A stretch of DNA of 60,936 bases from Candidatus Magasanikiibacteriota bacterium (GCA_016207245.1 JACQQA010000007.1:1-60936), one strand, 5' to 3'. Positions 150-29,937 are shown, counted from the first letter of the stretch. Notes: a model not told the origin generated them from the sequence alone. Made by a program: numbers and translations.

Positions 150-1583
150 ATGAAAAATTTACCTCTCAATCCAAAAACAGAACTTTTTCGCTGGGGACCG
201 ATACCGGGCAGATTTTTGTATTGTTCGGTTTTTGTTGATATCAACGTAAAACCATTCCGAAAAAAGTATGGCGGTTTTGGCTGGCCGCGCACTTTATTTT
301 TATTCGGCGGCGATAAGCGGATGTTATGGATTGACGAGTATCCGGCCTTGCGCCGCGAGTGTTTGAAAGTCTTTATCAATTATTTACTGCCCGCAAAAAC
401 AAGAAAAAAAATTTATCGTCAGTGGCATGAGGAGATTAAAAGACTCTTGCGTTGGCACAAGCGTATTGAGTCTGTTGATTTGCGCGCGTTAACCAATAAA
501 GAGCTGTTATTTTTTTGGCGCGGATATCACAAAGATTATCGCGATTTTTGGATTGATGGCATGGTTCCGGAATTGGGCGGATATGGCGCTGATAAATTAT
601 TTGAAGAAAAGCTGAAAAATTTTGTGTCGGATGATGAGCTTAACGGCGTGTTGGAAATCTTGACGGCGCCGACCCGTTTGTCTTTTTATCAAGAAGAAGA
701 AAGGGATTTGGCGCGGACAAAAGATTTAAACAAACATCAGCGCGGATATTTTTGGTTAAAAAACAGTTATGCCGGAACGGAGATTTTGCCGGTAAAATTT
801 TTTAAGGACAGACAGCTGTCATTGCGAGGAAGCGCCGATGAGGCGCTGACGAAGCAATCCAGTCATCGTGTTCGTGTCGCGATGATTAAACAGAGAAAAT
901 TTGACCTGTGTAAAAAGTATGGTCTGTCAAATGAAATAATGGATATCTCGGAAGCGATTAGTATGGGAATTGCTTGGCAGGACGAACGGAAGAAATATAT
1001 TTTTATTACTCTTCACTATCAGGATTTACTGTTGAAAGAAGTGGGCCGACGTTTTGGATACGATAAAGACGATTTGTTAAATACGTGGTATTATGAGATT
1101 GACAAGATTATCGCCGGCCAAGATTTACGCGGTATTTTGCGCCAGCGGCGGAATGGCGTCGGTGTTGATTTTTTTCGTTCCTGCCGGACGCTTGTCGGCT
1201 CCGAAGTCAAAAGGTTGTGGAAAAAATACGAATATGACGCGCGGGACGATTTATCAGACGTTATCAGCGGATTGGTAGTCAGCAAGGGAAGCGGTTCGGC
1301 AGTACGCGGACGAGCGCGAATATTATTAGACCCAAGCCGAGCGGATGAATTTAAGACAGGAGAGATATTAGTGGCGCCAATGACCAGCCCGGAGTATATC
1401 TTTGCCATGCGAAAAGCGGCGGCAATTGTTACCGATGCCGGCGGCTTGACTTGCCATGCCGCGATTGTGAGCAGAGAATTGGGGATTCCCTGTATTGTGG
1501 GCACGAAAATAGCGACAAAAGCGTTGGAAGATGGTGATTTAGTGGAGGTTGATGCGAATCACGGAACAGTGAAAAAGTTATGA
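150..1583 (+). CDS. PEP-utilizing-enzyme mobile-domain protein (swivel-His subunit, paralog 1)
   Basis: C-terminal phosphohistidine domain GEILVAPMTSPEY...AIVTDAGGLTCHAAIVSRELGIPCIVGT. The roughly 380-aa N-terminal domain is weakly paralogous to ORFs 1588, 3667 and 5155. There is no ATP-grasp or TIM-barrel domain. Confidence 0.85.
   Translation: MKNLPLNPKTELFRWGPIPGRFLYCSVFVDINVKPFRKKYGGFGWPRTLFLFGGDKRMLWIDEYPALRRECLKVFINYLLPAKTRKKIYRQWHEEIKRLLRWHKRIESVDLRALTNKELLFFWRGYHKDYRDFWIDGMVPELGGYGADKLFEEKLKNFVSDDELNGVLEILTAPTRLSFYQEEERDLARTKDLNKHQRGYFWLKNSYAGTEILPVKFFKDRQLSLRGSADEALTKQSSHRVRVAMIKQRKFDLCKKYGLSNEIMDISEAISMGIAWQDERKKYIFITLHYQDLLLKEVGRRFGYDKDDLLNTWYYEIDKIIAGQDLRGILRQRRNGVGVDFFRSCRTLVGSEVKRLWKKYEYDARDDLSDVISGLVVSKGSGSAVRGRARILLDPSRADEFKTGEILVAPMTSPEYIFAMRKAAAIVTDAGGLTCHAAIVSRELGIPCIVGTKIATKALEDGDLVEVDANHGTVKKL
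818..863. repeat. Family-A half element inserted in frame in paralog 1
   Basis: gtcattgcgaggaagcgccgatgaggcgctgacgaagcaatccagt, translated as SLRGSADEALTKQSS. It is near-identical to 3025-3071. Confidence 0.8.
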
Positions 1584-1587
1584 TATT

Positions 1588-3057
1588 ATGATAGACATCA
1601 ATCATTTATTAAAAAAGAAATGGTATTTCCAGGGGTTTAACGGCACGCCGAGTTTGTTGTATGGGCCGGCTTTTTCCATGATTCGCGATATGCCGGAATT
1701 ATTGGGGTTTGGTTATTCCGCCTGTATTGAATATTTTGAAAAAGATGTTTGTTATTATCTTTACGCCTGGGACGATCTTTACGCGATTTTAGATAAATTG
1801 CTGGAACATTACAAAAATGATAAGGGGTATTTGGATTATTTGTTAAAAGAAAATGAGCGAATTTGCAGTGAAGTCTTGGCGGAATATAAACAGATTGGAA
1901 ACAAGAATTGGAAAAATTTGAGCGCGGAAGAACTATTCGCTTTGTGGAAAAAATCAGACCGATTATACGCGCATTTGTTGGCCGTATCTCACATTGTTGA
2001 GGGGTTTACTTTAACAACCGAAAATCGCATACGGGAATTAATAGAAGTTGAGTTTGGCAAGGATTTTTTAGATAAAATCTTGCTTCTCACTGCGCCGCCG
2101 CGCCATTCTTTTTTAGCGACAGAGCGCTATGAGCTGTGTTTGATCGCCCGTGAGATTAAATTGGAGAGCAAAGGCGCGACGAAAAAGATAAAAATCCATC
2201 AAGAAAAATATTATTGGAAATTGAACAGCTATACTTCAGCCAAAATAGTTTCAGTTGAGGATTTCATGACCGAAATAGAAGAAATTCTGGCCAAGAATAT
2301 AGACATAGATAAAATTATCGCTGATTACGAATTTTTACCAAAACAAATATTAAAAAAAGAAAAATTGCGTCAAACAATAAAGAGCGAAGAGCTTTTAACT
2401 TTGCTGGCCATTAATGATATAATTTTCAGTATTCATGACCGGAGAAAAGAGTGCATGACGCAGGCGATTCATTATTTGGATTTTTTAATGGCTGAAATCG
2501 GACGGCGATTTAATCTCCCTCTGTATGATTTAAGATATATTCGCGCCAGCGAGTTGGACCAACTGCCAAACATCGCCGAAGAGCTTCGTTCCCGCAGGGA
2601 GCGGAGTTTGTATGTCGTCCTGCCCGGCGGGAAAGAAGCGCTTTTTATAGGAGATGAAGCGGAAAATTTATTTAAAACTTTAGAAAAAACTGACGCTGAA
2701 AACAAATCCAGCGTGGAAATTTTAAGAGGGAATTGCGCTTCTCCGGGTAAGGTGACTGGCATTGTTAAAATTTGCCGAGGCGAAGTGGAACTTGGCAAGG
2801 TCAATGATGGAGATATATTGGTAGCCTGTATGACCCAGCCGGAATTTTTGCCGGCAGTTAAAAAAGCCAAAGCGATTATCACTGACGAAGGCGGCATCAC
2901 TTGCCATGCGGCCATTGTTTCCCGCGAGCTGGGTATCCCTTGCGTCATCGGCACAAAAATCGCGACGAAAGTGCTGAAAGACGGCGATGAGGTTGAAGTG
3001 GACGCGAATCACGGGGTGGTCACCGTCATTGCGAGGAAAGCGCCGATGAGGCGCTGA
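1588..3057 (+). CDS. PEP-utilizing-enzyme mobile-domain protein (swivel-His subunit, paralog 2)
   Basis: C-terminal GDILVACMTQPEF...AIITDEGGITCHAAIVSRELGIPCVIGT. It starts 4 nt after the previous stop. Confidence 0.85.
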   Translation: MIDINHLLKKKWYFQGFNGTPSLLYGPAFSMIRDMPELLGFGYSACIEYFEKDVCYYLYAWDDLYAILDKLLEHYKNDKGYLDYLLKENERICSEVLAEYKQIGNKNWKNLSAEELFALWKKSDRLYAHLLAVSHIVEGFTLTTENRIRELIEVEFGKDFLDKILLLTAPPRHSFLATERYELCLIAREIKLESKGATKKIKIHQEKYYWKLNSYTSAKIVSVEDFMTEIEEILAKNIDIDKIIADYEFLPKQILKKEKLRQTIKSEELLTLLAINDIIFSIHDRRKECMTQAIHYLDFLMAEIGRRFNLPLYDLRYIRASELDQLPNIAEELRSRRERSLYVVLPGGKEALFIGDEAENLFKTLEKTDAENKSSVEILRGNCASPGKVTGIVKICRGEVELGKVNDGDILVACMTQPEFLPAVKKAKAIITDEGGITCHAAIVSRELGIPCVIGTKIATKVLKDGDEVEVDANHGVVTVIARKAPMRR

Positions 3058-3071
3058 CGAAGCAATCCAGT
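3025..3071. repeat. Family-A half element forming the C-terminal tail and stop codon of paralog 2
   Basis: gtcattgcgaggaaagcgccgatgaggcgctgacgaagcaatccagt. It has one extra A compared with 818-863 and is read as VIARKAPMRR-stop. Confidence 0.8.
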
Positions 3072-3083
3072 AATTAAACAATT

Positions 3084-3689
3084 ATGACTCTGTATCTTTG
3101 GGACATGGCAAATACATTATTTCCGGAAAAATGGAACCCGGAAATTACCGGCTTTGCTGATTTTGGGGCATATGTTAAGTCGCTTGGCGTGGATGCAGAA
3201 AACCCGCGTGTTTTTGAGGAATGCTATAAAGAGCCCTATATCCACGGCGAGAGATTTAATTTGCGAATCGCGGACGGGTTCGCTGATGTATTGAGCTGGA
3301 CAAAACACAACGAAACATTTACTACCGGCATTCGCGAGCAAATGGACTGGCGCGCGGAATACTTAAATCTCAAAGTCGGGTTTGATATTATAAAATATTT
3401 TCAGAAAATCATTTCAACTTTTGATTTCGGCGAAACGAATGTTAAAACACAGGAGATGTTGGAAAAATATCTTGCGCGGAGAAAAAGCGATGGTTATAAT
3501 GCGGTTGTCTATACAGACGATAAATTAGCAAATTGCGAAATGTTTAAGAAAGCCGCGGAGAGTGTGGGCATTTCATTCCGGGTGTATAATATGAAAAATG
3601 ACAGCGGCGGTTTAAGAAATGAAGGATGGTATTGGGAGATTGGGAATTTGTATGATTTATTGAAAAATGAAAAAAATTATGAAAAATAG
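3084..3689 (+). CDS. Hypothetical protein, possibly a degenerate HAD-like hydrolase
   Basis: N-terminal LYLWDMANTLF resembles HAD motif I (DxDxT) with the second Asp replaced. The late VVYTDDKL resembles motif IV. This is weak motif-level evidence only. Confidence 0.3.
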   Translation: MTLYLWDMANTLFPEKWNPEITGFADFGAYVKSLGVDAENPRVFEECYKEPYIHGERFNLRIADGFADVLSWTKHNETFTTGIREQMDWRAEYLNLKVGFDIIKYFQKIISTFDFGETNVKTQEMLEKYLARRKSDGYNAVVYTDDKLANCEMFKKAAESVGISFRVYNMKNDSGGLRNEGWYWEIGNLYDLLKNEKNYEK

Positions 3690-5139
3690 AAATCTTCGCG
3701 TTTATGAACGAGCGTCGCTTTATCCGCAAAGTATTGCTTATTATTTTGAAATGTTTTATTTTTTGACCAGCGAGTATCCTTACCTGGCGAAGTTTTGGGA
3801 AGTGGTGGCTTCTATCCGCGGATATTTTTATTGGGCGCGGGATACGGACTATTTAGAAAAGGCCGCGAGGAAGTGGTTTAATAATTGGCTGGCTGATCCG
3901 CAAGAGAGAAAGAGGATCTACAGTTTATTTTTTCGGGATAAACAGGATTTACACAAAGTAGTTGTTCCTCTGGGGGGCAAAGATCTGGCGCGGCTTGGAA
4001 ATAAAGAATTATTTAAAGTTTACCAGACCGTGATTGATTTCGCGTTAAAGCACATTTGTTACGCGGAATACACCGTGGATTTGTTTGATGATTATTTTGC
4101 GAAGTTTTTTATTGAGCACCTGCGAAAGAATAAGGCGGCGCTGTCTGGCGATGATTTAAACTCTTGTATTCAGCCGGCGACAATTTCAGCTAACGCTGAT
4201 TATAGGCGGAAGATAATAAAATTGTCTTTTGCTAAAAAATTGCCAAAACACAAAATTAGCGGTCTCGTTAAACAATATAGCTGGATTCGCATGAGTTGGG
4301 ACGGCGCGAATGAGCTTGAGATTAAAGATATTTTGGCGGACATCAGTGAATTAAGAAAGACCAGCCGTGAGCAGCTTCTGCTAGAGTTAAAAAATATTGA
4401 GACATTGCCGGAAACGGTTAGACAAAAACGAAATAGTTTGATTGTGAAACTCGGCATAGAAACAAAATTAGTATTGCCGTTTTTTGAGCTGCTGGATAAT
4501 TTTGGCTTGTTTCACGATTACAGAAAAGAAATACAAATGAGGAGCAATCAAATTATTTTTAGAGTTTTGCGTGAAATTCCCAAACGATTCGGTTTGTCGT
4601 TTGAAGATCTGATGTGGTATTTTAATGATGAGATAAAGAATTTGTTATTAAAAAATGTAATGGTGCCGAGCGAAATAATCGCTGAACGGAAAGAAGGACT
4701 GGTTTTTCATATTCATAAAAATAAAATAAAAAAATATTTCGGAAGAAAAGCGGTTAAAAAATTGGAAGAGCTGGTTTTGTCTGCAATGAGGGCTGATGAT
4801 ACCAAAGAAATAAGAGGCGTTCCGGCCAGTATCGGTAAGACCTCCGGAACTGTGTTTGTGTGCAAAGATGCCGGTGTCGCCAATATCAGCATGCCAAAAG
4901 GAGCGATTCTGGTTACTTCGATGACCACAATTGATTTCATACCGTCAATGAGGCGTGCCAAAGCTGTGGTAACAGATGATGGTGGGGCAACCTGCCACGC
5001 GGCGGTCGTTTCTCGGGAATTTGGCATCCCCTGCGTTGTTGGCGCCAAAGTCGCGACGCAATTGTTGAAGACGGGAGACGTGGTGGAGGTAGATGGACGG
5101 AAAGGGATTGTGAAAATTATTTTAAGGAGAGAGAATTAA
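3667..5139 (+). CDS. PEP-utilizing-enzyme mobile-domain protein (swivel-His subunit, paralog 3)
   Basis: C-terminal GAILVTSMTTIDF...AVVTDDGGATCHAAVVSREFGIPCVVGA. It overlaps the upstream ORF by 23 nt. Confidence 0.85.
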   Translation: MKKIMKNRNLRVYERASLYPQSIAYYFEMFYFLTSEYPYLAKFWEVVASIRGYFYWARDTDYLEKAARKWFNNWLADPQERKRIYSLFFRDKQDLHKVVVPLGGKDLARLGNKELFKVYQTVIDFALKHICYAEYTVDLFDDYFAKFFIEHLRKNKAALSGDDLNSCIQPATISANADYRRKIIKLSFAKKLPKHKISGLVKQYSWIRMSWDGANELEIKDILADISELRKTSREQLLLELKNIETLPETVRQKRNSLIVKLGIETKLVLPFFELLDNFGLFHDYRKEIQMRSNQIIFRVLREIPKRFGLSFEDLMWYFNDEIKNLLLKNVMVPSEIIAERKEGLVFHIHKNKIKKYFGRKAVKKLEELVLSAMRADDTKEIRGVPASIGKTSGTVFVCKDAGVANISMPKGAILVTSMTTIDFIPSMRRAKAVVTDDGGATCHAAVVSREFGIPCVVGAKVATQLLKTGDVVEVDGRKGIVKIILRREN

Positions 5140-5154
5140 ATAAATTAACATCAT

Positions 5155-6696
5155 ATGCCGTTAAAATATATTTTTGACCGAGATAAAATGTTTATTTGGC
5201 CGTTCTATATCTCGGATTTGACAATTACCGGCGATGTGCAGGAAATTTGCGGAGGTAAGATTGCCGAGTCGTTCGCGATCATTGAGAATGATTTTTTTAA
5301 GCTTTATATAGACGCGCCCTCATGCCGCCAAACCAGCGAATCTGTTTTTAATCGCATAATGGCGGATAAAAAATATTTTAAGCGGGTAGTTAAGAACATT
5401 TATCGTTATAGCAAAGATTTGGAGCGGTTTAGCAGGAAGATAAAAAAGATTTCTGTCACCAAATTAGCGGACGACAAATTGGTTAGTCTATTAGCCGTTT
5501 ATATAAAAAAATTAAGAATCATCCGCGCTTGGGGCTGGGTGCCGGTTTTCTTGGATGCTTTGGAAAAGAGCTATCTGACGGAATACATTCAGGAAGAACT
5601 GCAGAAGATTTTGCGAGCGAAAAATTTATCAAATAAAATGGGCGAATATTATTCTGTTTTGACATCCAGCGAGAAAAAAAGCGAGGTGCAAAGAGAAGAA
5701 TTGGCTCGACTGAACTTACTTTTGGAAGTATTAAAACACAAAAAATCAGATGAGATTGCCGCGGCTATCAAAAATAATCAAGCTTTAATTATTAAACAGG
5801 AATCTCCGGCAGTTTATGGATTGTTGGAAAAACATTTAAGAAAATTCGGCTGGCTTACCTATGCTTATGACGGTCCGGTGATGCAAATGAACTATTTGTT
5901 AAAAACTTTGGGTGATAATTTGTTAAAGAGCGATATATCTGATCAGAAAAAAATTCTTTTGGAATATTATAAAAATATTAAAAAAGAAAAGAAAAAATTG
6001 ATCAAAAATTTAGATTTGCCAAAAAGTTCGATTTATCCGATGAACGTGTCGGCGGAGCTAATGTACATAAAGGATTATCGCAAGGGCGTCTATCAAAAAT
6101 CTTATGTGGCAATGGATAAGGTGTTGGAAGAGCTCGCCAAAAGATTACAGATGTCTTTATATGAAATTAAGTACATGGTTTTTGATGAAATTAAAGACGC
6201 GCTGCTTGGTGGTACGGCAGATAAATATCGCGATTTATTAAAAATAAGGACAAAGAAGTGTTGTTATCTGGCTGTTGATGGGAGGATTACTGTGTGGGAA
6301 GGAGAGGAGTGCGAAAAGAAGATTTCGGAAAAAATAGGAAGAGAAAAAACTCTAGAAGCAATGCCAGCAGATCAAAAAGAAATTAAAGGGCTGGTGGCCT
6401 TTGGCGGCAAGGCGAGAGGAAAAGTAAAAATCGTTTTGGTGGAGAAAGATGTGGCTAAGGTACAAGAAGGCGACATACTTGTGTCTTCTGCGACCAACCC
6501 GGATTTAATCATAGCCATGAAAAAGTGCAGCGCTATTGTGACAGACACCGGAGGAATCGTCTCTCACGCCGCAATAATTTCTCGCGAATTAAAAAAGCCA
6601 TGCGTTGTCGGCACAAGAATCGCCACCCACCTGCTCAAAGATGGCGATTTAGTGGAGGTTGATGCCGACAGAGGTGTAGTTGTAAAATTAAATTGA
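5155..6696 (+). CDS. PEP-utilizing-enzyme mobile-domain protein (swivel-His subunit, paralog 4, most divergent)
   Basis: C-terminal GDILVSSATNPDL...AIVTDTGGIVSHAAIISRELKKPCVVGT, where the TCH motif has become VSH. Confidence 0.8.
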   Translation: MPLKYIFDRDKMFIWPFYISDLTITGDVQEICGGKIAESFAIIENDFFKLYIDAPSCRQTSESVFNRIMADKKYFKRVVKNIYRYSKDLERFSRKIKKISVTKLADDKLVSLLAVYIKKLRIIRAWGWVPVFLDALEKSYLTEYIQEELQKILRAKNLSNKMGEYYSVLTSSEKKSEVQREELARLNLLLEVLKHKKSDEIAAAIKNNQALIIKQESPAVYGLLEKHLRKFGWLTYAYDGPVMQMNYLLKTLGDNLLKSDISDQKKILLEYYKNIKKEKKKLIKNLDLPKSSIYPMNVSAELMYIKDYRKGVYQKSYVAMDKVLEELAKRLQMSLYEIKYMVFDEIKDALLGGTADKYRDLLKIRTKKCCYLAVDGRITVWEGEECEKKISEKIGREKTLEAMPADQKEIKGLVAFGGKARGKVKIVLVEKDVAKVQEGDILVSSATNPDLIIAMKKCSAIVTDTGGIVSHAAIISRELKKPCVVGTRIATHLLKDGDLVEVDADRGVVVKLN

Positions 6697-6700
6697 TTTT

Positions 6701-7204
6701 ATGAAAATTCTTCTTATTTCCGACAGCCACGATAATATATTTAATCTGGAAAAAGTTTTGCGATGGGCTGGCAGTATCGGCATACAACACATTATTCACG
6801 CCGGCGATATCTGCGCTCCGGGGGTGGTCACCAAAACATTTTCGCCGTTACTTGGCGGACAGATGCATATTGTTTTTGGCAATGTTGGCGACCGAGAGTT
6901 GTTGGAGCAGTACTGCGCGAAAACAAACAATATTAAGTATTACGGAGATTTTGGCGAAGTGGAGCTAGATAATAAAAAAATTGCTTTTGTCCATTTTAAG
7001 GAAAAGGCGGAGGCATCGGCGAAAACCGGTAAATATGATTTGGCGGTGTTTGGCCATTCACACCAGTCGGAAGTTTATAAAATTGGGCAGACACAGCTGG
7101 TTAATCCCGGCACAATCGGCGGATTATATAATCGGGCGAGTTTCGCCGTATATGATACCAAGAATGAGAAAGTTGATATTGAATTTTTAGACCAGCTTCC
7201 CTAA
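6701..7204 (+). CDS. YfcE/MJ0936-family metallophosphoesterase
   Basis: MKILLISDSHDN, HAGD, GNVGD, FGHSH and NPG motifs appear in the canonical order. Length is 167 aa. Confidence 0.8.
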   Translation: MKILLISDSHDNIFNLEKVLRWAGSIGIQHIIHAGDICAPGVVTKTFSPLLGGQMHIVFGNVGDRELLEQYCAKTNNIKYYGDFGEVELDNKKIAFVHFKEKAEASAKTGKYDLAVFGHSHQSEVYKIGQTQLVNPGTIGGLYNRASFAVYDTKNEKVDIEFLDQLP

Positions 7205-7231
7205 ATACTCAGTTTTTAACTCTTCTTTTTC

Positions 7232-7260
7232 TTGCTTTTACTGAGTTTTGGTATTATACT
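7232..7260 (+). promoter_or_regulatory. Sigma70-like promoter for the 7303-9947 block
   Basis: TTGCTT (7232-7237), 17 nt spacer, TATACT (7255-7260). It lies in the only sizeable gap (98 nt) of the cluster. Confidence 0.4.
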
Positions 7261-7302
7261 TAAAAACAACTAAGTACTCATTGTTTTTAATTAAAAAACA
7301 CC

Positions 7303-8226
7303 ATGGAAAGAGAACACGCGATAGATGGTGCCATTGATGCGGTGCGAGAACGAGAAAAATACCACTCTAAGACTGTACTTGAGTGGCATCGGCACGGTCT
7401 CAAGGACGGAGACAAATTATCTTTACCAGGCAGAGAAAAAGCTGCTGCGGAAAGCGCGGAAAGCAGGATTTTGGTCAATAGAGGCGTGCCCACTCTCGCT
7501 ATAGGCAGTGATAAGTTGCGGACACAAGAAACAGCGGGCCTGCTTTTGCATGGAGATAAGTTAGAACCCGAGTTCGTCACTGCTTATGAAAACGTGGATG
7601 GCTTGGTAAAAAAAATTAATGCTGATTACGGCGTAAAAGTTGGGACGAAAATCGCGAAAGACAAGAGACTCGGCTTTAATTTCGCGGAAGGCGAATATAA
7701 GACGGCCGCTTATGCCGCCGATGGCCGCAAAGAATTTTTGAAATGGACAGTGGAAGAAAGCGACAGTTTGGCTGAAAAATGCGGCGATCGGCAGTCGTCA
7801 TCTTATCGTCGCATAGCATCTTCAGTAAGTGAGTTTGTCTTGAAATATGTGCAAGTTGAAAAAAATTTTGATAGACTATTAAAGAGGAAGCGGGATGAGG
7901 ACGTTTCTTTGAAACAAGAGATTGCGGACACCATGCAAAGAATAGTGGTATCTCATTCCGGAGTGATAGATGTATTTTTGGCGAAAGTGATTGAAGATAG
8001 CAAAGGCATCAACGCGCGGGATGAATTTGTAAAAGCGTTGGGCGATTCCGGCTTTGCTCCGCTGGAGGGCTTTAGTATGGAGATTATAACGAATACGGTT
8101 GGCAGTGAGCCGATTATTAAAATTGATTATGATAAAAAGGATGACGAGGGAAAGATTGTTTTTAGCTTCCACGAAAGTATGAATTCGGAATTTTTTAAGA
8201 GAATTGTTGAGGCGGAGAGAAAATAA
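7303..8226 (+). CDS. Histidine-phosphatase (phosphoglycerate-mutase-like) superfamily protein
   Basis: RHG motif (EWHRHGLKDGD) near the N-terminus and a second catalytic-His motif VVSHSGVIDVF. Confidence 0.5.
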   Translation: MEREHAIDGAIDAVREREKYHSKTVLEWHRHGLKDGDKLSLPGREKAAAESAESRILVNRGVPTLAIGSDKLRTQETAGLLLHGDKLEPEFVTAYENVDGLVKKINADYGVKVGTKIAKDKRLGFNFAEGEYKTAAYAADGRKEFLKWTVEESDSLAEKCGDRQSSSYRRIASSVSEFVLKYVQVEKNFDRLLKRKRDEDVSLKQEIADTMQRIVVSHSGVIDVFLAKVIEDSKGINARDEFVKALGDSGFAPLEGFSMEIITNTVGSEPIIKIDYDKKDDEGKIVFSFHESMNSEFFKRIVEAERK

Positions 8227-8240
8227 GATTTGGCCGCATT

Positions 8241-8582
8241 ATGATAAGAATTATTGATAAAAGAATTATCGTGTCAGAATTGCGTAAATTCTTAAATCAG
8301 CCGTTTCCGGAAATGATTAAATTTGTTGTTGACATAGAAAAAGAAATTTTGGCTTTGGGCGGTGAGGTGCACGCCGATGCGGAAGAAGCGCTTCTAGAAA
8401 ATGGTTCTGAACAAAAAAATCTATGGGGCGGGAATGTTTACCCGGATGCTATAGGCGAAAAATTAAAATACAATTCTTTAATCAATATCCGTCCATCGCA
8501 AAACAATCGCAGTTTAGATGTCCAAGATGAGTCATTGAAAAATAAAATTAAAGTGATTGTCTACAAATTATTACCCTTGTGA
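8241..8582 (+). CDS. Hypothetical protein
   Basis: Open frame tightly packed in the cluster. I recognise no motif. Confidence 0.5.
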   Translation: MIRIIDKRIIVSELRKFLNQPFPEMIKFVVDIEKEILALGGEVHADAEEALLENGSEQKNLWGGNVYPDAIGEKLKYNSLINIRPSQNNRSLDVQDESLKNKIKVIVYKLLPL

Positions 8583-8914
8583 ATCAGCTACACCCAAACT
8601 TAAATCCAGCAAAGTGGGGTAGTTTGCCGAAGGATAGGCAGATTTTGAATATCGCGTCGGAGTTTACGCGCGCGAAGCAATGGCTTGAACAGGATAATAG
8701 ACAGTATGCCGGCCATAGTTTAGATAGGGTTTTAGAGTTGGTGGATTTAACAATTCAGGATAAAAATTGCGGCAGAGGTTTTTTTCATGAACTTCTTCGC
8801 TGGAGAGAGCAGGTTGGCGTGTTGTATGTTGGCGCGCAAATGAAAACAGAGGCAAATTTACTGCTTAGATCATTGTTAGATTCTTTACCACAGACTTCAA
8901 TAATTCAAACTTGA
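8579..8914 (+). CDS. Hypothetical protein
   Basis: The GTG start overlaps the upstream stop (GTGA), and the gene ends 1 nt before the next gene. No motif recognised. Confidence 0.45.
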   Translation: MNQLHPNLNPAKWGSLPKDRQILNIASEFTRAKQWLEQDNRQYAGHSLDRVLELVDLTIQDKNCGRGFFHELLRWREQVGVLYVGAQMKTEANLLLRSLLDSLPQTSIIQT

Positions 8915-8915
8915 T

Positions 8916-9947
8916 ATGCAACATCTCAAATTTTTCTCTCATATCTCCAAATCCGACGTCGCCATCGCCGGAGGAAAAGGCGCATCGTTGGGCGAGATGA
9001 GTAAAGCAAAAATACCAGTGCCGCCCGGGTTCGTGGTGTTGGCGAACGCGTTTGATCGGTTTTTGGAGGAAACGGATTTGAACGCGGAGATAAAGGCGAG
9101 GTTGAAAGAGGTAAATCCGGAAGACACGAATTCAGTTGATAAAGCCAGTAATGTTATCCGCGATACGATTCACGACCACGAGATGCCGAAGGATTTGGCA
9201 GAGGAGATTTTGAAGGCGTTTGATGAATTGTTTGCGACGAACACACCCCCTGCCCCTATCCGAGAGGGGAGGTTGGTGGCCGTGCGATCAAGCGCGACGG
9301 CAGAGGATTCGGCGGTGGCGAGCTGGGCCGGAGAGTTGGAAACGTATTTGAATACAACCAGAGAAAATGTGGTGGAAAGAGTTAAAAACTGCTGGTCGTC
9401 TTTGTTCACTCCGCGAGCGATATTTTATCGGCATGAAAAAAAATTGATTGACCACTATGTTTCCGTCGCTGTGGTAATACAAAAAATGATTCAGTCGGAA
9501 ATTTCCGGCATTGCTTTTACAGTGCACCCGGTTACCGAAGATTATGATCAAATGATTATAGAAGCCGGATACGGGCTTGGCGAGGCGATTGTGTCCGGGC
9601 AGATCACGCCGGATAGCTATGTGGTTTCCAAAAGCGCGATGAGTATTGTGGATATTAATGTGGAAGCGCAGACTCGCAAGCTCGTTAAATCAAAAATCTT
9701 CGCTAAAGGCGAATCCGCCTCGGGCGGAATAAATCATAAATCTAAAATCGACAGTAATGAGTGGGTGGAGATTGGAAGTGAGGGCGAGAAACAGAAGCTG
9801 AGCGGGAGGCAGATTATTGAATTAGCGAAAGTTTGTAAAAGAATTGAAGAACATTATGGTTTTCCGTGCGATATTGAGTGGGCCTTTGCGGAAGGAAAAT
9901 TTTACGTGACGCAGTCAAGACCGATAACGACGTTGAAGAAGCTATAA
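8916..9947 (+). CDS. Stand-alone PEP/pyruvate-binding (PPDK_N, ATP-grasp) domain protein
   Basis: AIAGGKGASLGEM, PVPPGFVV, VAVRSSATAEDS, SWAGELETYLN, VAVVIQKMI, IEAGYGLGEAIVSGQITPD and DIEWAF...YVTQSRPIT match the N-terminal nucleotide-binding domain of PpsA/PPDK/RPH. His and TIM domains are absent. Confidence 0.85.
   Translation: MQHLKFFSHISKSDVAIAGGKGASLGEMSKAKIPVPPGFVVLANAFDRFLEETDLNAEIKARLKEVNPEDTNSVDKASNVIRDTIHDHEMPKDLAEEILKAFDELFATNTPPAPIREGRLVAVRSSATAEDSAVASWAGELETYLNTTRENVVERVKNCWSSLFTPRAIFYRHEKKLIDHYVSVAVVIQKMIQSEISGIAFTVHPVTEDYDQMIIEAGYGLGEAIVSGQITPDSYVVSKSAMSIVDINVEAQTRKLVKSKIFAKGESASGGINHKSKIDSNEWVEIGSEGEKQKLSGRQIIELAKVCKRIEEHYGFPCDIEWAFAEGKFYVTQSRPITTLKKL
9687..9749. repeat. Family-C-like short element in frame in the ATP-grasp gene
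   Basis: aaatcaaaaatcttcgctaaaggcgaatccgcctcgggcggaataaatcataaatctaaaatc, read as KSKIFAKGESASGGINHKSKI. It has the same flanking aaatc(t/a)aaaatc words as 22021 and 45192. Confidence 0.6.
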
Positions 9948-24440: not shown

Positions 24441-24578
24441 ACACCCGGTTCATTCAAACTAAAAATAAATTCACGCGTTTGGGGCAAAACGCGTGTTAGT
24501 TTTATATAGTTCTAGTTGGTTCAAAGTTTCTGGCGGTTCTATGTGTCCTCTTGGGTGAGGACGAGGAGGGTTTCAATC

Positions 24579-26228
24579 ATGATAGCAGAAAGACCAAGTA
24601 TCTGGATGGGAGTCACACTGAAGAGTGTGATTTCCGGCTTCATCCTGGCGGTCATCATGTGCGCCGCCAATTCCTACCTGACGCTCAAGGCGGGCGTCAT
24701 CGAGGAAGGGCCAATCATCGCGGCCTTGATCTTCACCGGCATTTTCTTTGCACTGAAGCAGAAGGTGACGACCACCGAGGCTATGATCGCGGCCACCATG
24801 GGATCGGCCGGCGGAAGCTTCGGATTCGTCACCAATATCTTCGCGGCCTTCCAAATGGTGGGTATCACGCTCACCACCGGCCAGATGATGTTGCTCACGC
24901 TTTCCACCGGCGTTTTCAGCGTTCTGATGGCCATCCCGTTCTACTATCTCTTCATCGTGAAGGAAACTTTGCCTTGGGTCGTAGGCGAGGCTTGCGCCAA
25001 TGTCATCCAGAACACAGTGGCCTCAAAAGATACCAAGCAGGGTAAAATCATCCTATGGTTCACCATCCTGTTCTTCGGCGTTCTAATGCTACAAGGCAAG
25101 ATGTGGATGCCGGAGATGAGCGACTTCTACACCTTCGGAATGGTGGGAGTAGGCCTGGCTTGGAGCCCCTTCTTCTTGAGTGCCGGAGGACTGTTGGGTC
25201 TGCGCACAGGTTGGGGATTCGTGGTTGGAGCGCTACTGCTTGTGATTGTATCACCGTACACAAACAAGCCGGCCGCTCCCCACAAATTCTTCTATCCGGG
25301 CGTGGCCTTTCTCATCACCTCCGGCCTGACTACACTCGTGCTTAAGTGGCAAACCATGGTGTCTGCGTTGGGCGCCCTGAAGAACATCGGTAGTGATGAT
25401 GGTGGAATTCTCCCACTCAAATGGCTGGCCGGACTTAGCCTAGTCGTAGCTATGATCATTGTTGTGATCCTGAAATACTGGTTCGGGGTGCCTATCTATC
25501 TCGGTATCATCTATATCGTGGTGGGAGGAGTATTCCTGAATCTGGTCGCCATTCGAGCGGCAGGAGAAACAACTTTCAATCCGGTGCGCGCTATGGGTAT
25601 AGTAACCCAGGGCATCGGCGCTCTGACCGGCGCCGTGGACAAGCTGGTCAATCTGACTGGCGCGGGCGTGATGGCTGGCAGCAACAACCAAACCAGCATC
25701 CTGTGCCAGGATCTCTACTCCGGTTGGCGGCTCAAAATTAACCCGAAACTGCAGGTGGCCTTGCAGGCGATGGTACTGCCAGTCATTGCCGTCGTTAGCG
25801 TCGGCATCTTCTACTTCTTGTCATCCACCACTGAGATCTCGTTGGAAAACGACAAGCTGTCGGCGCCGGTAGCTAAGGCCTGGGCCGGATTCTCCCTGAT
25901 TCTTAATGGCGACAAACTGCCCGACAACGCTCTCAATCTGATGTACATATTCGGAATCGGTGGCGTGGTTCTGGCGTTGCTGGAAGGAAATGCCGCTATC
26001 AAGCGCTTCCTGCCTTCCACTACCGGCATCGGCATCGGGCTCATCCTGCCAATCGCTTACTCATTGGATTTCTTCGTGGGCGCAGTGATATTCCTCATCC
26101 TCGCCAAGAAATTCAAAATGGGCGAAGAGACAATAAGTAGCATAGCGGCCGCCGGCATTCTCGGCGAAGCGGCTGGCGGGCTACTGAACGGCGCCCTGAA
26201 AGTCGCAGGCATCTTCCCGTTAGAATGA
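24579..26228 (+). CDS. OPT-family oligopeptide transporter
   Basis: Polytopic, with an N-terminal ANSYLTLKAGVIEEGPIIAA signature resembling the OPT motif aNaYlgLKvG. The ATG at 24579 is preceded by GAGGAGGG. Confidence 0.65.
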   Translation: MIAERPSIWMGVTLKSVISGFILAVIMCAANSYLTLKAGVIEEGPIIAALIFTGIFFALKQKVTTTEAMIAATMGSAGGSFGFVTNIFAAFQMVGITLTTGQMMLLTLSTGVFSVLMAIPFYYLFIVKETLPWVVGEACANVIQNTVASKDTKQGKIILWFTILFFGVLMLQGKMWMPEMSDFYTFGMVGVGLAWSPFFLSAGGLLGLRTGWGFVVGALLLVIVSPYTNKPAAPHKFFYPGVAFLITSGLTTLVLKWQTMVSALGALKNIGSDDGGILPLKWLAGLSLVVAMIIVVILKYWFGVPIYLGIIYIVVGGVFLNLVAIRAAGETTFNPVRAMGIVTQGIGALTGAVDKLVNLTGAGVMAGSNNQTSILCQDLYSGWRLKINPKLQVALQAMVLPVIAVVSVGIFYFLSSTTEISLENDKLSAPVAKAWAGFSLILNGDKLPDNALNLMYIFGIGGVVLALLEGNAAIKRFLPSTTGIGIGLILPIAYSLDFFVGAVIFLILAKKFKMGEETISSIAAAGILGEAAGGLLNGALKVAGIFPLE

Positions 26229-26374
26229 ATATCTTATCACGACGGACAGCACACGCGCGCGTATTGCCCCACGCGCGCACTGCCTTGAATTGACTTCGCA
26301 GTCATTCAAGGTCCTACCGCGCTGTTCCGTCCTTCCCCATTTTTAGCATTAAAAATGTGAAAAGCGGGGAGGAG

Positions 26375-26428
26375 AAAATTTATATTAAAAAATCATTCAA
26401 TAAAGAATGATTTTTTAATATAAATTTT
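26375..26428. terminator. Perfect 24-bp-stem AT-rich palindrome between convergent GC-rich genes
   Basis: aaaatttatattaaaaaatcattc / aataaa / gaatgattttttaatataaatttt. Confidence 0.6.
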
Positions 26429-26538
26429 TTAACTTTCTTCAATCTCCGAAATCATTCAGAAATTTAAGGGAGTGGTGGAGGCGCGGGCGTTGTGATAAAC
26501 GTCGGCGTCTCCACGGGAGGGAAAGAGCGGTGTGCGCG

Positions 26539-27816
26539 CTACGCGGCAAGAGGATTCTCAATGATCAGAGAGATTCCCTGGCCGCCGCCGATGCACATGG
26601 TTATGAGCGCGTATCGCTTGCCAGTGCGGCGGAGGCCGTAGGCTGCGGTGAGAGTGAGGATTGCGCCGGTGGCGCCGAGCGGGTGGCCCAGAGCGATTGC
26701 TCCGCCGTATGGGTTGACTTTTTCAGGGTCAATACCCATTTCGGTGAAGCCTTTGATGCAGGCCAGAGCCTGCGGAGCAAAGGCCTCGTTGAGCTCCACC
26801 CAGTCAATCTGGTCGCCGGTCAGGCCGGCGCGTCCCAGCGCTTGCTTGGTGGCCGGCACCGGCCCCCAGCCCATGATCTTGGGGTCGCAGGCGCCGTAGC
26901 CCCAGGCCACGATGCGCGCCAGCGGTTGAAGGTTATGTTCTGTAGCGGTGAACTGCTGGCAGAGTACCATGGCCGCCGCGCCATCCACCACGCCGGAAGC
27001 ATTGCCGGCAGTGATCATTCCGCCGGGTTCGAATGTTGGTCGGAGACCGGCCAGCCCGTCATACGAGGCATCGTCCCGGATGTGGGTGTCGCGGCAGACG
27101 TCCATTGGGCTCACTCCGCCGTTCACCGGCACCGACACCGGTACGGTTTCCTCGTCGAAGTAGCCGGTGTCGCGCGCCGCCTTGGCCCGTTCGTTGGACT
27201 GCAAGGCGAAGCGATCACACTCTTCGCGCGTGATGCCGTTCTGCCGACCTAAGAGTTCGGCCGTATTCGCCATGGCCATGCCAGCCACGGGATCAAAGAG
27301 CGAGAGCAGCATCATGTCCTGCAGGGCAGCGCCAGGCGGGAGACTGGTCAGCGGCCCGTACTTGACGTGTCGTCCGCGCAGACCGTGCGCGACGTGCGGG
27401 TATTGCATTGACTGCATTCCCACGACAGCTACGAACGGCCCGTTGAGATCTCCTAGCAGGAGTTTCATGGTACCTTGAACGATCGCTTCAGCGCCAGACC
27501 CGCACAGCCGTTGAACCGTGAGCGCGGGGACGTCTTCGGGCAGACCGGCAAGGAGTCCGACATGGCGAGCGCCATACCACGATTCCCGATGCGAGTCGCC
27601 GACAGTGCCGGCAATCACGTGGCCGAACTTGTCAAGCAGGTTGGCCAGAGGCGTGATGACGGCTTTGAGAGCCATTGCTCCCAACTGGTTGGTTGTGAAG
27701 CCCGAGAACAGACCGGGCGAACGGTTCTCGTGCAGAATGTCAGCCCGTGGCGTTCGTTTGCCACCGTCAATGATGACCACAGGATCTTCGGCAAGAATCC
27801 TTTCGAAGTGTTTCAT
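26539..27816 (-). CDS. Acetyl-CoA acetyltransferase (thiolase)
   Basis: Active-site VQRLCGSGAEAI and the C-terminal NPYGGAIALGHPLGATGA...MCIGGGQGISLIIE. SD TAGGAGGA lies 7 nt upstream. Confidence 0.9.
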   Translation of the reverse strand: MKHFERILAEDPVVIIDGGKRTPRADILHENRSPGLFSGFTTNQLGAMALKAVITPLANLLDKFGHVIAGTVGDSHRESWYGARHVGLLAGLPEDVPALTVQRLCGSGAEAIVQGTMKLLLGDLNGPFVAVVGMQSMQYPHVAHGLRGRHVKYGPLTSLPPGAALQDMMLLSLFDPVAGMAMANTAELLGRQNGITREECDRFALQSNERAKAARDTGYFDEETVPVSVPVNGGVSPMDVCRDTHIRDDASYDGLAGLRPTFEPGGMITAGNASGVVDGAAAMVLCQQFTATEHNLQPLARIVAWGYGACDPKIMGWGPVPATKQALGRAGLTGDQIDWVELNEAFAPQALACIKGFTEMGIDPEKVNPYGGAIALGHPLGATGAILTLTAAYGLRRTGKRYALITMCIGGGQGISLIIENPLAA

Positions 27817-27828
27817 GTTGTCATCCTC

Positions 27829-29775
27829 CTACGAGTTCATGAACACGGCCGGAACCTTGGGGCCGTTGGCCATGAAGTTTGTGAGTCCGATTCGCATGTC
27901 CTGTGTCCCGAAGCAGTGGCCGAAGCCGTCCGCTTCCAGTTTGAGTCCTTCCGCGAGTGGCAGAGCGAGCCCTCTGCGGACCACGTCCACCAGGATGGCG
28001 TCGATCGCCTGCGAATGATGGCCGATGTCAACGATGGGCGTGCCGTCCGACACCCCCATCGGGTTGGGGTTGGTAGCGTGGATTTCCGGATCGGGGTCCT
28101 TCAGATGCGCCGCGATGAATCGCTTGGCGCTATCCATAGGGTCGCCCGAACCGAGGTCCCTCGCCCAGCCGATTTCTTTTGCCACGCCGGCATTGATTGT
28201 CTTGCCGGTGCGGAGGAGCTCCAGCGCTTTCGCGAATCCGACGAGGCGCGGGAGCCGTTGCGTGCCGCCGTAGCCAGGGATGATACCGAGATTGACCTCG
28301 GGTTGGCCGATGATGGCGTTCTTGCCGACCACGCGGTCGTGGCAAGCCATCACGAGTTCGCATCCGCCGCCGAGGCAGGGACCGTTCACCACTGCGATGA
28401 CCGGCTTGCCGAGGCTTTCGATGTAGTTGAATATGCCCTGTCCGCTGATCGCCATGACCGTGCCCTGTTTCGGGTCTGTCAGCGCGGCTAGTTCGTTGAT
28501 ATCTGCGCCGGCGATGGCGCCGTTGTAGCCGGTCAGGATGATGCCTCTGACCTTCTCGTCCGTCTCGAGTCCGCGGAATGCGTAGTCAAGCTCCACCATG
28601 GTCAGGCGGTTGAGCGCGTTCATAGCTTCGGGACGAAAAATTGTGACAACCACGATGCCATCATCGTTGATCTCCACCTTGACGTTGGAGAAGAAGTCTA
28701 TCGACATGGCCTCCACGATGCTTTCCGGCACAGTGAAGCCCGGGTTCTCCTGCGCGTAGATTGCGCAGATTGTTCTGATCTCGTTCGGGTCCTGGTTGAA
28801 CTGCGCCACGAGTCCGAACTTGAACCCGAGCGCGTTCTTGCAGAGCCAGTCCAAATCAGTCGCCGAGATCACGTTGTTATCCACGAGCCAGACTGCCCGT
28901 CCGATGATTGCGGCCATGAGTTGATCGTGGATTGTTCGTTCGGTTTCTTCATTGCAGGACTTGTCACCCGACAAATCCCACGGTTGCGAGCCCTGTTGGA
29001 GAAGAACCGGCGGTGCTGTCCAGTAGTCGCCGTATTTCTCCCGCATCATGTCGGCGCAGAATCTGATGATCTTGTTGCCGGCAGTGATGTTGAGCACGTT
29101 GAAAGCGCCACTGCCGCCGATGTACTTGTCGGCGATAGCGTTCACTTGGGCCACAGTCGCGACCCCGCGCTCAACCAGCCACGCGCAGGCCAGACAATAG
29201 ATCGTGAAGATCTGGTCTGCCGCGAAGCAGGGAACATCGGCCGTTGCGATCGGCACCTTGCCGAGCGCCACAGTCAGATCGTACGCCCTTTGCCAGTTCA
29301 CATGGTGGCCGACGAGCTCTACCGGCAGAGAGCGCCAGGCCGGAGTGAAGGGATGCCAGACGAAGAATCGTTGATGGCGCAGTACTTTCTTCGTAAGCAC
29401 AGCCCACGGAATGCTGGACGTGGTCGTGAGGATCAGGCAGTCATCCCGCACTATCTTTTCAAGTTGCGCGTAGATGCTCTGCTTGACTTCCACGTTCTCG
29501 CTTGCGGCCTCAAAGACCGCGTCGCATTGGGACAGGTCGGACAGGTTGAGGGTTGTTGTGATGGCCGCGAGCGCCTTGGCGGCGGCTCCTTCCGAAAGCT
29601 TGCCTTTCTTCACGGCTTTCGTGACATAGCCGCGGATACGGCCCATTGCCGCACCCAGTTGCTCTTGGCCGACATCGACCAGCAGCACTTTCCCGCCTGT
29701 TTTCGCGGCTAATCCAGTCGCGACATAGGCGATGTCAGCGCCGATGACTCCGGCGCCGACAATTCCGATATTCAA
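27829..29775 (-). CDS. Bifunctional 3-hydroxyacyl-CoA dehydrogenase (N-terminal) / enoyl-CoA hydratase (C-terminal)
   Basis: N-terminal Rossmann IGIVGAGVIGADIA. The C-terminal crotonase fold reads VVTIFRPEAMNALN...GADINE...VNGPCLGGGCEL. Apparent TTG start with AAGGAAGGTG upstream. Confidence 0.85.
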   Translation of the reverse strand: MNIGIVGAGVIGADIAYVATGLAAKTGGKVLLVDVGQEQLGAAMGRIRGYVTKAVKKGKLSEGAAAKALAAITTTLNLSDLSQCDAVFEAASENVEVKQSIYAQLEKIVRDDCLILTTTSSIPWAVLTKKVLRHQRFFVWHPFTPAWRSLPVELVGHHVNWQRAYDLTVALGKVPIATADVPCFAADQIFTIYCLACAWLVERGVATVAQVNAIADKYIGGSGAFNVLNITAGNKIIRFCADMMREKYGDYWTAPPVLLQQGSQPWDLSGDKSCNEETERTIHDQLMAAIIGRAVWLVDNNVISATDLDWLCKNALGFKFGLVAQFNQDPNEIRTICAIYAQENPGFTVPESIVEAMSIDFFSNVKVEINDDGIVVVTIFRPEAMNALNRLTMVELDYAFRGLETDEKVRGIILTGYNGAIAGADINELAALTDPKQGTVMAISGQGIFNYIESLGKPVIAVVNGPCLGGGCELVMACHDRVVGKNAIIGQPEVNLGIIPGYGGTQRLPRLVGFAKALELLRTGKTINAGVAKEIGWARDLGSGDPMDSAKRFIAAHLKDPDPEIHATNPNPMGVSDGTPIVDIGHHSQAIDAILVDVVRRGLALPLAEGLKLEADGFGHCFGTQDMRIGLTNFMANGPKVPAVFMNS

Positions 29776-29937
29776 TTGTCACCTTCCTTTTCTGTTGCTG
29801 TTTAGTAACCTCTTTGCCCTTTTTACTCCTTTCTGTTATTGGGCAAAATTAGGTTAACAAAAAAATCGTTTCGCGTCAAGATGAATACATTGACTTTTTT
29901 TTTCTTTTCAATTATACTTTAATCACTTTTCGCAATT

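Follow-up and report, generated by a model that had tools for sequence, protein, structure and literature searches.

A probable multi-carrier two-component dikinase, with one ATP-grasp gene and four carrier genes, in Candidatus Magasanikbacteria

Introduction

The recognition of two-component small-molecule dikinases as a subfamily is recent, and has been limited to 1:1 pairs of aromatic catabolism. In the phenylphosphate synthase of Thauera, Protein 1 (70 kDa) carries the catalytic His569 near its C-terminus and Protein 2 (40 kDa) binds ATP. Protein 2 moves the beta,gamma-pyrophosphoryl group of ATP to His569; hydrolysis removes the gamma-phosphate, and phenol receives the beta-phosphate. PasAB, AcvAB, and CreHI are homologous pairs. 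For HpeHI from Rhodococcus, the crystal structure of the stand-alone ATP-grasp subunit HpeI is available (9GOJ; Dexter et al. 2025, PMC12167813). The two proteins of this pair do not associate stably; a transient interaction is what sharing of one subunit among many partners would require. HpeH alone performs the second half-reaction and, without HpeI, moves phosphate from 4-phosphoacetophenone to acetovanillone.

Here, we describe a gene cluster at positions 150-9947 of a 60,936-nt stretch of DNA from a Candidatus Magasanikiibacteriota bacterium (GCA_016207245.1, JACQQA010000007.1:1-60936; the whole stretch is called the window below), in which a single stand-alone ATP-grasp gene accompanies four genes encoding phosphohistidine proteins, termed carriers. 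The cluster probably encodes a multi-carrier two-component small-molecule dikinase of the PpsAB/CreHI/AcvAB/HpeHI type, made of split homologs of rifampin phosphotransferase (RPH), in which the one ATP-grasp protein charges each carrier. The host, Candidatus Magasanikbacteria, is an ultra-small groundwater bacterium of the candidate phyla radiation (CPR).

The locus resembles the described systems in that (i) it has a stand-alone ATP-grasp subunit lacking a His or substrate domain, which in PpsAB, CreHI, AcvAB, PasAB, and HpeHI is about 340-390 aa long; (ii) the second subunit, as in PpsAB, CreHI, AcvAB, and HpeHI, is predicted to join an RPH-type substrate-binding domain to a swivel His domain at the C-terminus, with no TIM barrel; (iii) the subunit genes are co-located, here on the same strand and in the same cluster; and (iv) phosphatases are linked to the pathway, as with AcvF, a HAD enzyme in the AcvAB system (the phosphatases of the known systems act after the carboxylation step). 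It differs from the known 1:1 pairs in having four carriers per ATP-grasp, with 1 to at least 11 in relatives. The known systems belong to aromatic-catabolism operons with adjoining carboxylases in free-living Proteobacteria and Actinobacteria, whereas the system of the window has no carboxylase and occurs in CPR and DPANN hosts. In addition, the N-terminal domains (N-domains) of its carriers are shorter (about 370 aa, versus about 500 inferred from the position of His569/His581 near the C-terminus of the 70-71 kDa PpsA/HpeH proteins).

An earlier note, made from the sequence of this DNA, knew of no described system with this one-to-four split architecture, but had overlooked that the trans-split dikinase is already known from phenylphosphate synthase, CreHI, AcvAB, and HpeHI; what appears undescribed, and is potentially new, is the one-to-many layout. 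In the full-text literature, the coverage of which leaves out subscription journals so that an earlier mention is possible, we found no description of the multi-carrier arrays, the polyproteins, or the CPR/DPANN family. A survey of the CPR resistome lists rph-like matches, and a DPANN paper annotates 'phenylphosphate synthase' without a carboxylase.

Layout of the gene cluster

Ten ORFs were confirmed between positions 150 and 9947, all on the + strand and with the coordinates first described. They are separated by gaps of -23 to +26 nt, save for one gap of 98 nt. The genes for the four carriers and the ATP-grasp subunit are as follows.

Carrier 1: 150..1583, + strand; 477 aa, N-domain at about aa 1-372 followed by the C-terminal swivel His domain; PF00391 at aa 401-472 (E 1.8e-27); His436 codon at nt 1455-1457, inside GGLTCHAAIVSRELGIPC; DxRK from D278.
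Carrier 2: 1588..3057, + strand; 489 aa; PF00391 (E 1.7e-26); His440 at nt 2905-2907, in GGITCHAAIVSRELGIPC; DxRK from D284.
Carrier 3: 3667..5139, + strand; 490 aa; PF00391 (E 5.1e-26); His444 at nt 4996-4998, in GGATCHAAVVSREFGIPC; DxRK from D284.
Carrier 4: 5155..6696, + strand; 513 aa; PF00391 (E 1.5e-23); His471 at nt 6565-6567, in the variant motif GGIVSHAAIISRELKKPC; DxRK from D307.
Stand-alone ATP-grasp (PPDK_N): 8916..9947, + strand; 343 aa; PF01326 (E 2.7e-95), model positions 3-314 of 328.

All four carriers thus end in a PEP-utilizer mobile domain with the His motifs noticed initially, three of them with the phosphoenolpyruvate (PEP) synthase-type motif GGxTCHAA. No other significant Pfam domain was found in the four proteins, i.e. 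neither an ATP-grasp nor a PEP/pyruvate TIM barrel (PEP-utilizers_C). The only nucleotide-binding module is the separate ATP-grasp protein, which matches PF01326 alone over its full length, lacks a His domain, and carries the nucleotide-site motifs GGKG (aa 19), RSS (aa 124), and AEDS (aa 129). A scan of the 61-kb window with profile hidden Markov models (HMMs) revealed no further ATP-grasp or His domain, no fused ppsA/ppdK, and no TIM-barrel remnant.

Only 149 nt lie between the contig edge and the array, and the count of four carriers is therefore a minimum; with regard to a further carrier upstream, no resemblance to the end of a His domain was seen in the three frames of nt 1-149. For the 98-nt gap (7205-7302), a promoter-like site had been proposed. 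An extended -10-like element, TGgTATTAT, is visible there by eye, but the promoter scanner listed nothing in the gap, and promoter-like matches in the region barely exceed chance (30 versus 22.8 +/- 4.4 expected). At gathering thresholds, the window gave no Rfam match.

In the public annotation of this contig, carrier 2 (window 1588-3057) is a 263-aa product, P0032, starting from an internal Met. Full-length orthologs of 480-518 aa back the 489-aa ORF over this shorter call.

Sequence and predicted fold of the subunits

Among PDB sequences, the ATP-grasp protein matched PEP synthase (8a8e, E 8e-72), RPH (5fbs, 1e-54), and HpeI (9goj, 9e-52), all three alignments being full-length (aa 3-342 for the 387-residue HpeI chain). 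The best PDB sequence match of the carrier His domains was likewise PEP synthase 8a8e (E 2e-28). Scores against the PEP-synthase equivalog were 336 bits for the ATP-grasp protein and 110-132 bits for the carriers, versus a cut-off of 598. PpsA and PPDK provide the best sequence matches for both modules; they differ from the window proteins in possessing a PEP/pyruvate TIM barrel and in the central rather than C-terminal position of the His domain, and the window N-domain is unrelated to any PpsA or PPDK domain.

Overall identity among the four carriers is 26-31%, made up of 16-24% in the N-regions and 45-57% in the His regions. The conserved islands noticed in the N-domains were confirmed: H196, W202, D278, R280, K281, E297, and R301 (numbering of carrier 1) are invariant in all four, and across 35 family members the equivalents of the first six are invariant and that of R301 is retained in at least 90%.

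The fold was tested directly for carrier 2, to which the other three carriers are joined by the family alignment. An AlphaFold2 model built on 35 sequences reached a pLDDT of 92.1 and a pTM of 0.90. When it was compared with the PDB by Foldseek, as the earlier note had suggested for the N-domains, the best six matches were all RPH from Listeria (RPH-Lm; E 1e-13 to 7e-12), with alignments of about 570 columns that span the N-domain and the His domain (TMq 0.40-0.56, identity 16-18%). The remaining matches covered the swivel domain alone (TMq <=0.21). Because RPH-Lm alone matches across both domains, the N-domain is assigned as an RPH-type substrate-binding domain, and the carriers are, according to this model, such a domain joined to a swivel domain. 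Once the window proteins are joined, they have the order of RPH-Lm (5FBS/5FBT/5FBU/5HV1) and the RPH/PigC/RedH family, i.e. ATP-grasp, substrate-binding domain, swivel His domain; RPH, however, is one polypeptide with one substrate domain, whereas in the window the modules lie on separate genes and the carriers are several.

Sequence comparisons of the N-domain gave weaker signals. With phmmer and with a 35-sequence profile against PDB sequences, the His domain aligned but the N-domain did not. Sub-threshold NCBIfam alignments of the carriers extend into the RedH, PRK06241, and RPH models: carrier 4 weakly matches RedH with aa 97-509 on model positions 463-875, N-domain included, and the carriers score 62-73 bits (cut-off 999) and 42-58 bits (cut-off 1700) against the RPH models NF041857 and NF000283, respectively. 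Against the PRK08296 group the matches are confined to the His domain (model positions ~485-608; 57-107 bits versus cut-offs of 578-730), another difference from the known two-component systems, and by these scores the carrier N-domain forms a subfamily apart from the PRK08296 PpsA/HpeH-like models.

The structure paper on RPH describes the RIF-binding domain as lacking structural homologs, and reports conservation of the catalytic block 9 (Arg666-Glu667 and Lys670) throughout a broad 'small molecule dikinase' family. In three independent alignments, the D-x-R-K(E) element of the carriers extrapolates to RPH model position ~672, close to Arg666/Glu667/Lys670. As an extrapolation rather than a residue-level structural alignment, this is suggestive, and D-x-R-K is the probable counterpart of the RPH catalytic Arg/Lys block 9.

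Carrier number and linkage in related loci

Species-representative genomes were scanned with the ATP-grasp protein of the window, which gave 520 relatives. The best 80 loci (L007-L086) were analysed with HMMs built from the family, and 77 non-redundant loci were classified, one duplicate and one locus without an above-threshold HMM match having been removed. The ATP-grasp was stand-alone in 69 of the 77 loci and fused in 8, and a second stand-alone ATP-grasp gene was found in none of them. In one locus (L063), a classical PpsA-like fusion adjoins the stand-alone gene.

Carriers were counted in the 42 loci with at least 8 kb of upstream sequence. At least one was present in 32 loci (76%), at least two in 21 (50%), and at least four in 9 (21%), with 1-6 carriers in each carrier-bearing locus. 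Of 111 cases, 103 had the carrier on the upstream side of the ATP-grasp gene, and in 22 of the 65 loci with upstream sequence a carrier lay directly upstream (within 150 nt). Larger arrays exist as well: L087 encodes at least 10 carriers followed by one ATP-grasp on a single strand, and L005, from Magasanikbacteria, contains eleven tandem carriers and no ATP-grasp. The carrier to ATP-grasp ratio, 4:1 in the window, accordingly ranges from 1:1 to at least 10:1 in related loci, and the neighbourhood first seen in one contig is a recurrent one.

Natural fusions show the same modules within single polypeptides. One of them (L080, 845 aa) has the order grasp-N-His, which is the RPH order that the earlier note had expected from joining the ATP-grasp protein to a carrier. 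Another (L074, 10001-13957) consists of an ATP-grasp and two carrier units, and two further proteins, one from a locus labelled Woesearchaeota (L071, 10001-16654, 2217 aa) and one from a locus labelled Nanoarchaeota (L070, 5565-11624, 2019 aa), contain one ATP-grasp followed by four carrier units. GGxx(C/S)HAA is retained in every carrier unit of the fusions.

The degree of constraint differs sharply between modules. ATP-grasp proteins of the sampled loci share 57-88% identity with that of the window. For the carrier His domains, 97% of pairs can be aligned (median identity 52%), compared with only 32% for the N-regions (median 23%). At 35% N-domain identity, 115 carriers fall into 75 clusters, and the catalytic His is kept in 115 of 115. 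No pair of carriers within a locus exceeds 29% N-domain identity, and the arrays are therefore collections of old lineages rather than products of recent duplication. A model with a shared charger predicts such a pattern, in which the engine is conserved, the docking domain is conserved to a moderate degree, and the specificity domains are hyperdiverse.

Three of the four window carriers have orthologs in other species. Those of carrier 1 occur in 5 of the sampled loci (cluster 3), those of carrier 2 form at least 30 clusters of ~490 aa (45-74% identity over the N-domain query), and one of carrier 4 is present in L024; carrier 3 shares its cluster with no other carrier of the sampled loci at 35% N-domain identity. 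Homologs of the N-domain are nearly all ~490 aa long, match PF00391 only, and belong to CPR bacteria, among them Candidatus Magasanikbacteria. When the four N-domains were used in an exhaustive profile search, at least 4040 representative clusters (50% identity) were returned, 2432 of them at E <=1e-10. Lengths of 460-520 aa prevail. Polyproteins with 2-4 units (983-2309 aa) are also numerous, and some proteins of ~750-785 aa have the N-domain from residue ~285-330 onward, consistent with an N-terminal ATP-grasp.

These data bear on the idea that the ORFs are decayed fragments of a fused ppsA or rph gene, i.e. pseudogenes or assembly artefacts. Public annotations often call such ORFs 'phosphoenolpyruvate synthase', and the truncated 263-aa call of carrier 2 would suit the idea too. 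All ORFs are intact, however, their domain matches are full length, and the window holds no TIM-barrel remnant. Stand-alone ATP-grasp orthologs form more than 100 clusters of 70-88% identity (313-413 aa, nearly all 313-388, PF01326 only), which indicates strong purifying selection, so that the split is not gene decay. Full-length carrier orthologs in other species and the size of the N-domain family point the same way, and we regard decay as effectively refuted.

Several variants of the modules were observed in the related loci. A stand-alone swivel His domain of 105-116 aa with the motif HGG(V/I)TSHxAI and no N-domain is encoded at L033:5301-5618, L048:115-432, L012:514-834, and L028:4699-5049. 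In these four species, the sequence upstream is non-coding and the stand-alone ATP-grasp gene follows directly downstream, which amounts to a three-way split of the modules. A second carrier class of ~350-370 aa has an N-region of ~240 aa that the long N-domain HMM does not match (L013:7940-9028, L015:3616-4689, L021:8929-9999, L059:8901-10004, and others); the L070 and L084 polyproteins also begin with units of this class. In one orthologous carrier group of ~500-508 aa from five species (L025:6503-8011, L050:6191-7693, L030:6173-7681, L031:5062-6588, and L044:4413-5930), the variant active site GGHGIT(S/T)HPATL(S/A)REA replaces GGxTCHAAIVSRE.

The protein encoded at L084:9989-13093 is a single-polypeptide fusion too. 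Like those of L070, L071, and L074, it consists of an ATP-grasp and the carrier units that follow it (two to four in the four proteins), each unit with its catalytic His intact. Together with L070, L071, and L074, this locus is labelled DPANN or uncultured Gammaproteobacteria/Methanosarcinales, and the ATP-grasp parts of the four are 57-58% identical to the window protein, about as much as is seen between CPR lineages. If the taxon labels of these metagenome-assembled genomes (MAGs) are taken at face value, this suggests transfer between CPR bacteria and DPANN archaea. Many other loci (L009, L012, L017, L020-L027, and others), with an ATP-grasp 57-84% identical, are labelled Gammaproteobacteria, Deltaproteobacteria, or Methanosarcinales; such labels probably reflect mislabelled MAGs rather than true hosts.

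An ATPase similar to VirD4/TrwB (type IV secretion system coupling protein, DUF87) is encoded directly upstream of the array in three loci (L001:7967-9964, L003:7346-9637, and L005:1-1376). The family recurs in flanking ORFs, and the matching position in the window is lost at the contig edge. This neighbour could reflect conserved synteny or a functional link.

Proposed mechanism

In the proposed reaction, the 343-aa ATP-grasp protein would bind MgATP, form a transient complex with a carrier, and transfer the beta,gamma-pyrophosphoryl group to the His of its swivel domain. The gamma-phosphate would leave as inorganic phosphate (Pi), and the phospho-His domain would swing back to its own RPH-type N-domain to phosphorylate a small molecule bound there. 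The net reaction would be ATP + substrate + H2O -> AMP + Pi + substrate-P. By analogy with the characterised relatives, we infer dikinase chemistry via phosphohistidine with release of AMP and Pi. All four carriers would be charged in trans by the single ATP-grasp protein, and each would act on a different small molecule; a shared ATP-grasp with distinct substrates is proposed because the N-domains diverge (16-24%) while the docking His domains stay similar (45-57%).

That one charger may serve several carriers had been put forward in the earlier note, and the predicted fold, the conserved split, the co-occurrence of the genes, and the natural fusions now support it, the charging of all four carriers being an extension of these observations. 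Several findings weigh against the proposal. No carrier lies within 10 kb of the ATP-grasp gene in 10 of the 42 loci, and in the genome of L005 the ATP-grasp ortholog is on a separate contig (L014); carrier/ATP-grasp linkage is thus frequent rather than obligatory. In the window itself, the last carrier and the ATP-grasp gene lie 2.2 kb apart, with four unrelated genes and possibly an internal promoter in between. The homology of the N-domain to RPH depends on the fold and on the weak sub-threshold HMM alignments, while the PDB profiles reach the His domain only. As for the phosphatase-type and other accessory genes, the YfcE, DUF5674, and 111-aa genes are not conserved partners, and the HAD-fold protein lacks the Asp+2 general acid/base, which makes its phosphatase activity uncertain.

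Some of these points would equally suit a different arrangement, in which the ATP-grasp serves one local carrier at most and the other carriers are ATP-independent phosphotransferases that shuttle phosphate between metabolites or are fed by another donor or kinase. HpeH, which transfers phosphate between small molecules by itself, offers a precedent, and the ATP-grasp-free array of L005, the ten loci in which the ATP-grasp has no nearby carrier, and the genes intervening in the window would all be in keeping with it. It is nevertheless unlikely in our view. Polyproteins in which a single ATP-grasp is joined to two to four carrier units speak for one ATP-grasp working with several carriers; each locus has a single stand-alone ATP-grasp gene whatever its carrier number; the paralogs have kept similar His domains, as they would if these docked to a common partner; and the genome with the eleven-carrier array does possess an ATP-grasp ortholog.

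Accessory and phosphatase-type genes

The remaining genes of the cluster, interspersed between the carriers and the ATP-grasp gene, are as follows.

HAD-fold protein (predicted): 3084..3689, + strand; 201 aa; between carriers 2 and 3, its 3' end overlapping the start of carrier 3 by 23 nt.
YfcE-type metallophosphoesterase: 6701..7204, + strand; 167 aa; Metallophos_2 (E 1e-29); TIGR00040, 78.4 bits versus cut-off 56.25.
Histidine-phosphatase-superfamily protein: 7303..8226, + strand; 307 aa; H-R-H-G near aa 29-32; the single long gap of the cluster (98 nt) lies before it.
DUF5674 protein: 8241..8582, + strand; 113 aa; PF18924 (E 1.7e-36).
Unannotated protein: 8579..8914, + strand; 111 aa; overlaps the end of the DUF5674 gene by 4 nt, its stop lying 1 nt before the ATP-grasp gene.

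Searched by tblastn in the related loci, these genes recurred rarely (the YfcE-type gene in no locus, the 111-aa and 201-aa proteins in one locus each, the DUF5674 gene in two, and the 307-aa protein in three), and the idea that they are conserved orthologous partners was dropped in favour of an enrichment of functional classes. No homolog of the YfcE-type gene was found within +/-10 kb in the related loci, and it is locus-specific. DUF5674 is a sporadic neighbour of the arrays; it follows the eleven-carrier array in L005 and is also present in L077. The 111-aa protein has no family match; its homologs occur in L005 and L007, in the latter directly upstream of the ATP-grasp gene.

By itself, the 307-aa protein matches His_Phos_1 with an E of 0.06. 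Homologs were found in three loci (L017, L027, and L067); that of L027 (phmmer E 5.8e-23) scores 26.0 bits against His_Phos_1, above the Pfam cut-off of 21.7, which places the 307-aa protein in the histidine phosphatase superfamily. The 201-aa protein has no Pfam or NCBIfam match, and its 56 homolog clusters in CPR are all unannotated. Its AlphaFold2 model (pLDDT 97.2) is most similar to the HAD enzymes 2g80 (4.5e-7) and 4dfd/4f71 in Foldseek, so the protein is predicted to have a HAD fold. The HAD motifs are D7-x-A9-x-T11 for motif I, with Asp+2 replaced by Ala, K121 for motif III, and D145-D146 for motif IV. Homologs also lie between carriers in L024 and L087. In a comparison with the recurrent HAD cluster, hhalign gave a probability of 2%, the HAD fold having come from structure prediction and Foldseek.

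Among 91 intra-array ORFs in 33 loci, there were 12 His_Phos_1, 6 HAD, 2 acylphosphatase, and 1 Metallophos_2 proteins. The 150 ORFs flanking the arrays in the same loci represent housekeeping synteny; neither His_Phos_1 nor HAD was among their 25 most frequent families, the cut-off for which was 3 members. With the counts in the 150 flanking ORFs set at a conservative upper bound of 3 members each, Fisher tests gave p = 0.0014 for the enrichment of His_Phos_1 and p = 0.0002 for His_Phos_1 and HAD together. The notion that phosphatases accompany the system is hence partly supported, at the level of classes, though not for the specific genes of the window. The embedded HAD-fold and histidine-phosphatase-family proteins probably, we infer, dephosphorylate products or reset phospho-carriers.

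The histidine phosphatase superfamily includes the phospho-His phosphatase SixA. The enrichment of His_Phos_1 genes in the arrays could hence also be read in terms of a protein- or polymer-directed phosphorelay, comparable to Enzyme I of the phosphotransferase system or to glucan water dikinases, with the histidine-phosphatase-family genes encoding SixA-type enzymes. In favour of this reading, the His domains are similar to their counterparts in PEP synthase and Enzyme I, with the PEP-synthase-type T-(C/S)-H retained in most; glucan water dikinases are dikinases able to act on polymers and would be the precedent. We consider such a relay improbable, slightly more so than the phosphate-shuttling arrangement above. 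The only match to the N-domain fold is the small-molecule-binding domain of RPH, the substrates of the characterised two-component relatives are all small phenolic molecules, and neither a carbohydrate-binding nor an HPr-like partner was found among the window proteins or the intra-array ORFs. The earlier note had left a choice between small-molecule and macromolecular substrates; small molecules are now favoured, and a macromolecular substrate is less likely because the N-domain fold is RPH-type.

A Fic-domain protein (L087:4402-5442, 346 aa) was observed inside the array of at least 10 carriers, along with two 309-aa His_Phos_1 genes and a HAD gene. The possibility that the cluster of the window is an anti-phage defence system was rejected, PADLOC giving no meaningful match for any of the ten proteins.

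Possible physiological role

Metabolite capture by irreversible phosphorylation, or inactivation of antibiotics or toxins, would fit the multi-carrier dikinase, and both suit reduced episymbionts. More tentatively, and with somewhat less than even confidence, the arrays may represent a modular phosphorylation battery of CPR bacteria and DPANN archaea, with one conserved charger, hyperdiverse ancient carriers, and embedded phosphatases, each carrier capturing or inactivating a different small molecule such as host metabolites, antibiotics, or toxins. If so, this would be a major and previously unrecognised investment of ultra-small episymbionts: with up to 11 carriers, the family takes up more than 1% of some CPR/DPANN genomes of ~1 Mb. 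The substrates could reveal what these organisms, which are thought to scavenge, take up, detoxify, or modify.

Should one ATP-grasp indeed serve many carriers, the system would have a plug-in architecture, in which one ATP-consuming engine is combined with interchangeable specificity modules. Such swappable substrate-binding subunits would be of interest to enzymology and biocatalysis. The four-unit polyproteins and the stand-alone swivel domains offer natural material on how a swivel domain picks its docking sites.

Other features of the window

Outside the cluster, a block of ~5.3 kb (window 24500-29800) stands out by a GC content of 0.55-0.65 against a background of ~0.42. It contains the following genes.

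OPT oligopeptide transporter: 24516-26228, + strand.
Thiolase: 26539-27816, - strand.
FadB-like fusion of 3-hydroxyacyl-CoA dehydrogenase and enoyl-CoA hydratase: 27829-29775, - strand.

Neither beta-oxidation genes nor so sharp a change in GC content would be expected in a CPR genome, and the block is therefore either a horizontally acquired island or the result of a chimeric assembly. Further downstream, the leucyl-tRNA synthetase (window 35657-38683, 1008 aa) carries a NUDIX domain at aa 241-357, located between the first stretch of the catalytic domain and the editing domain.

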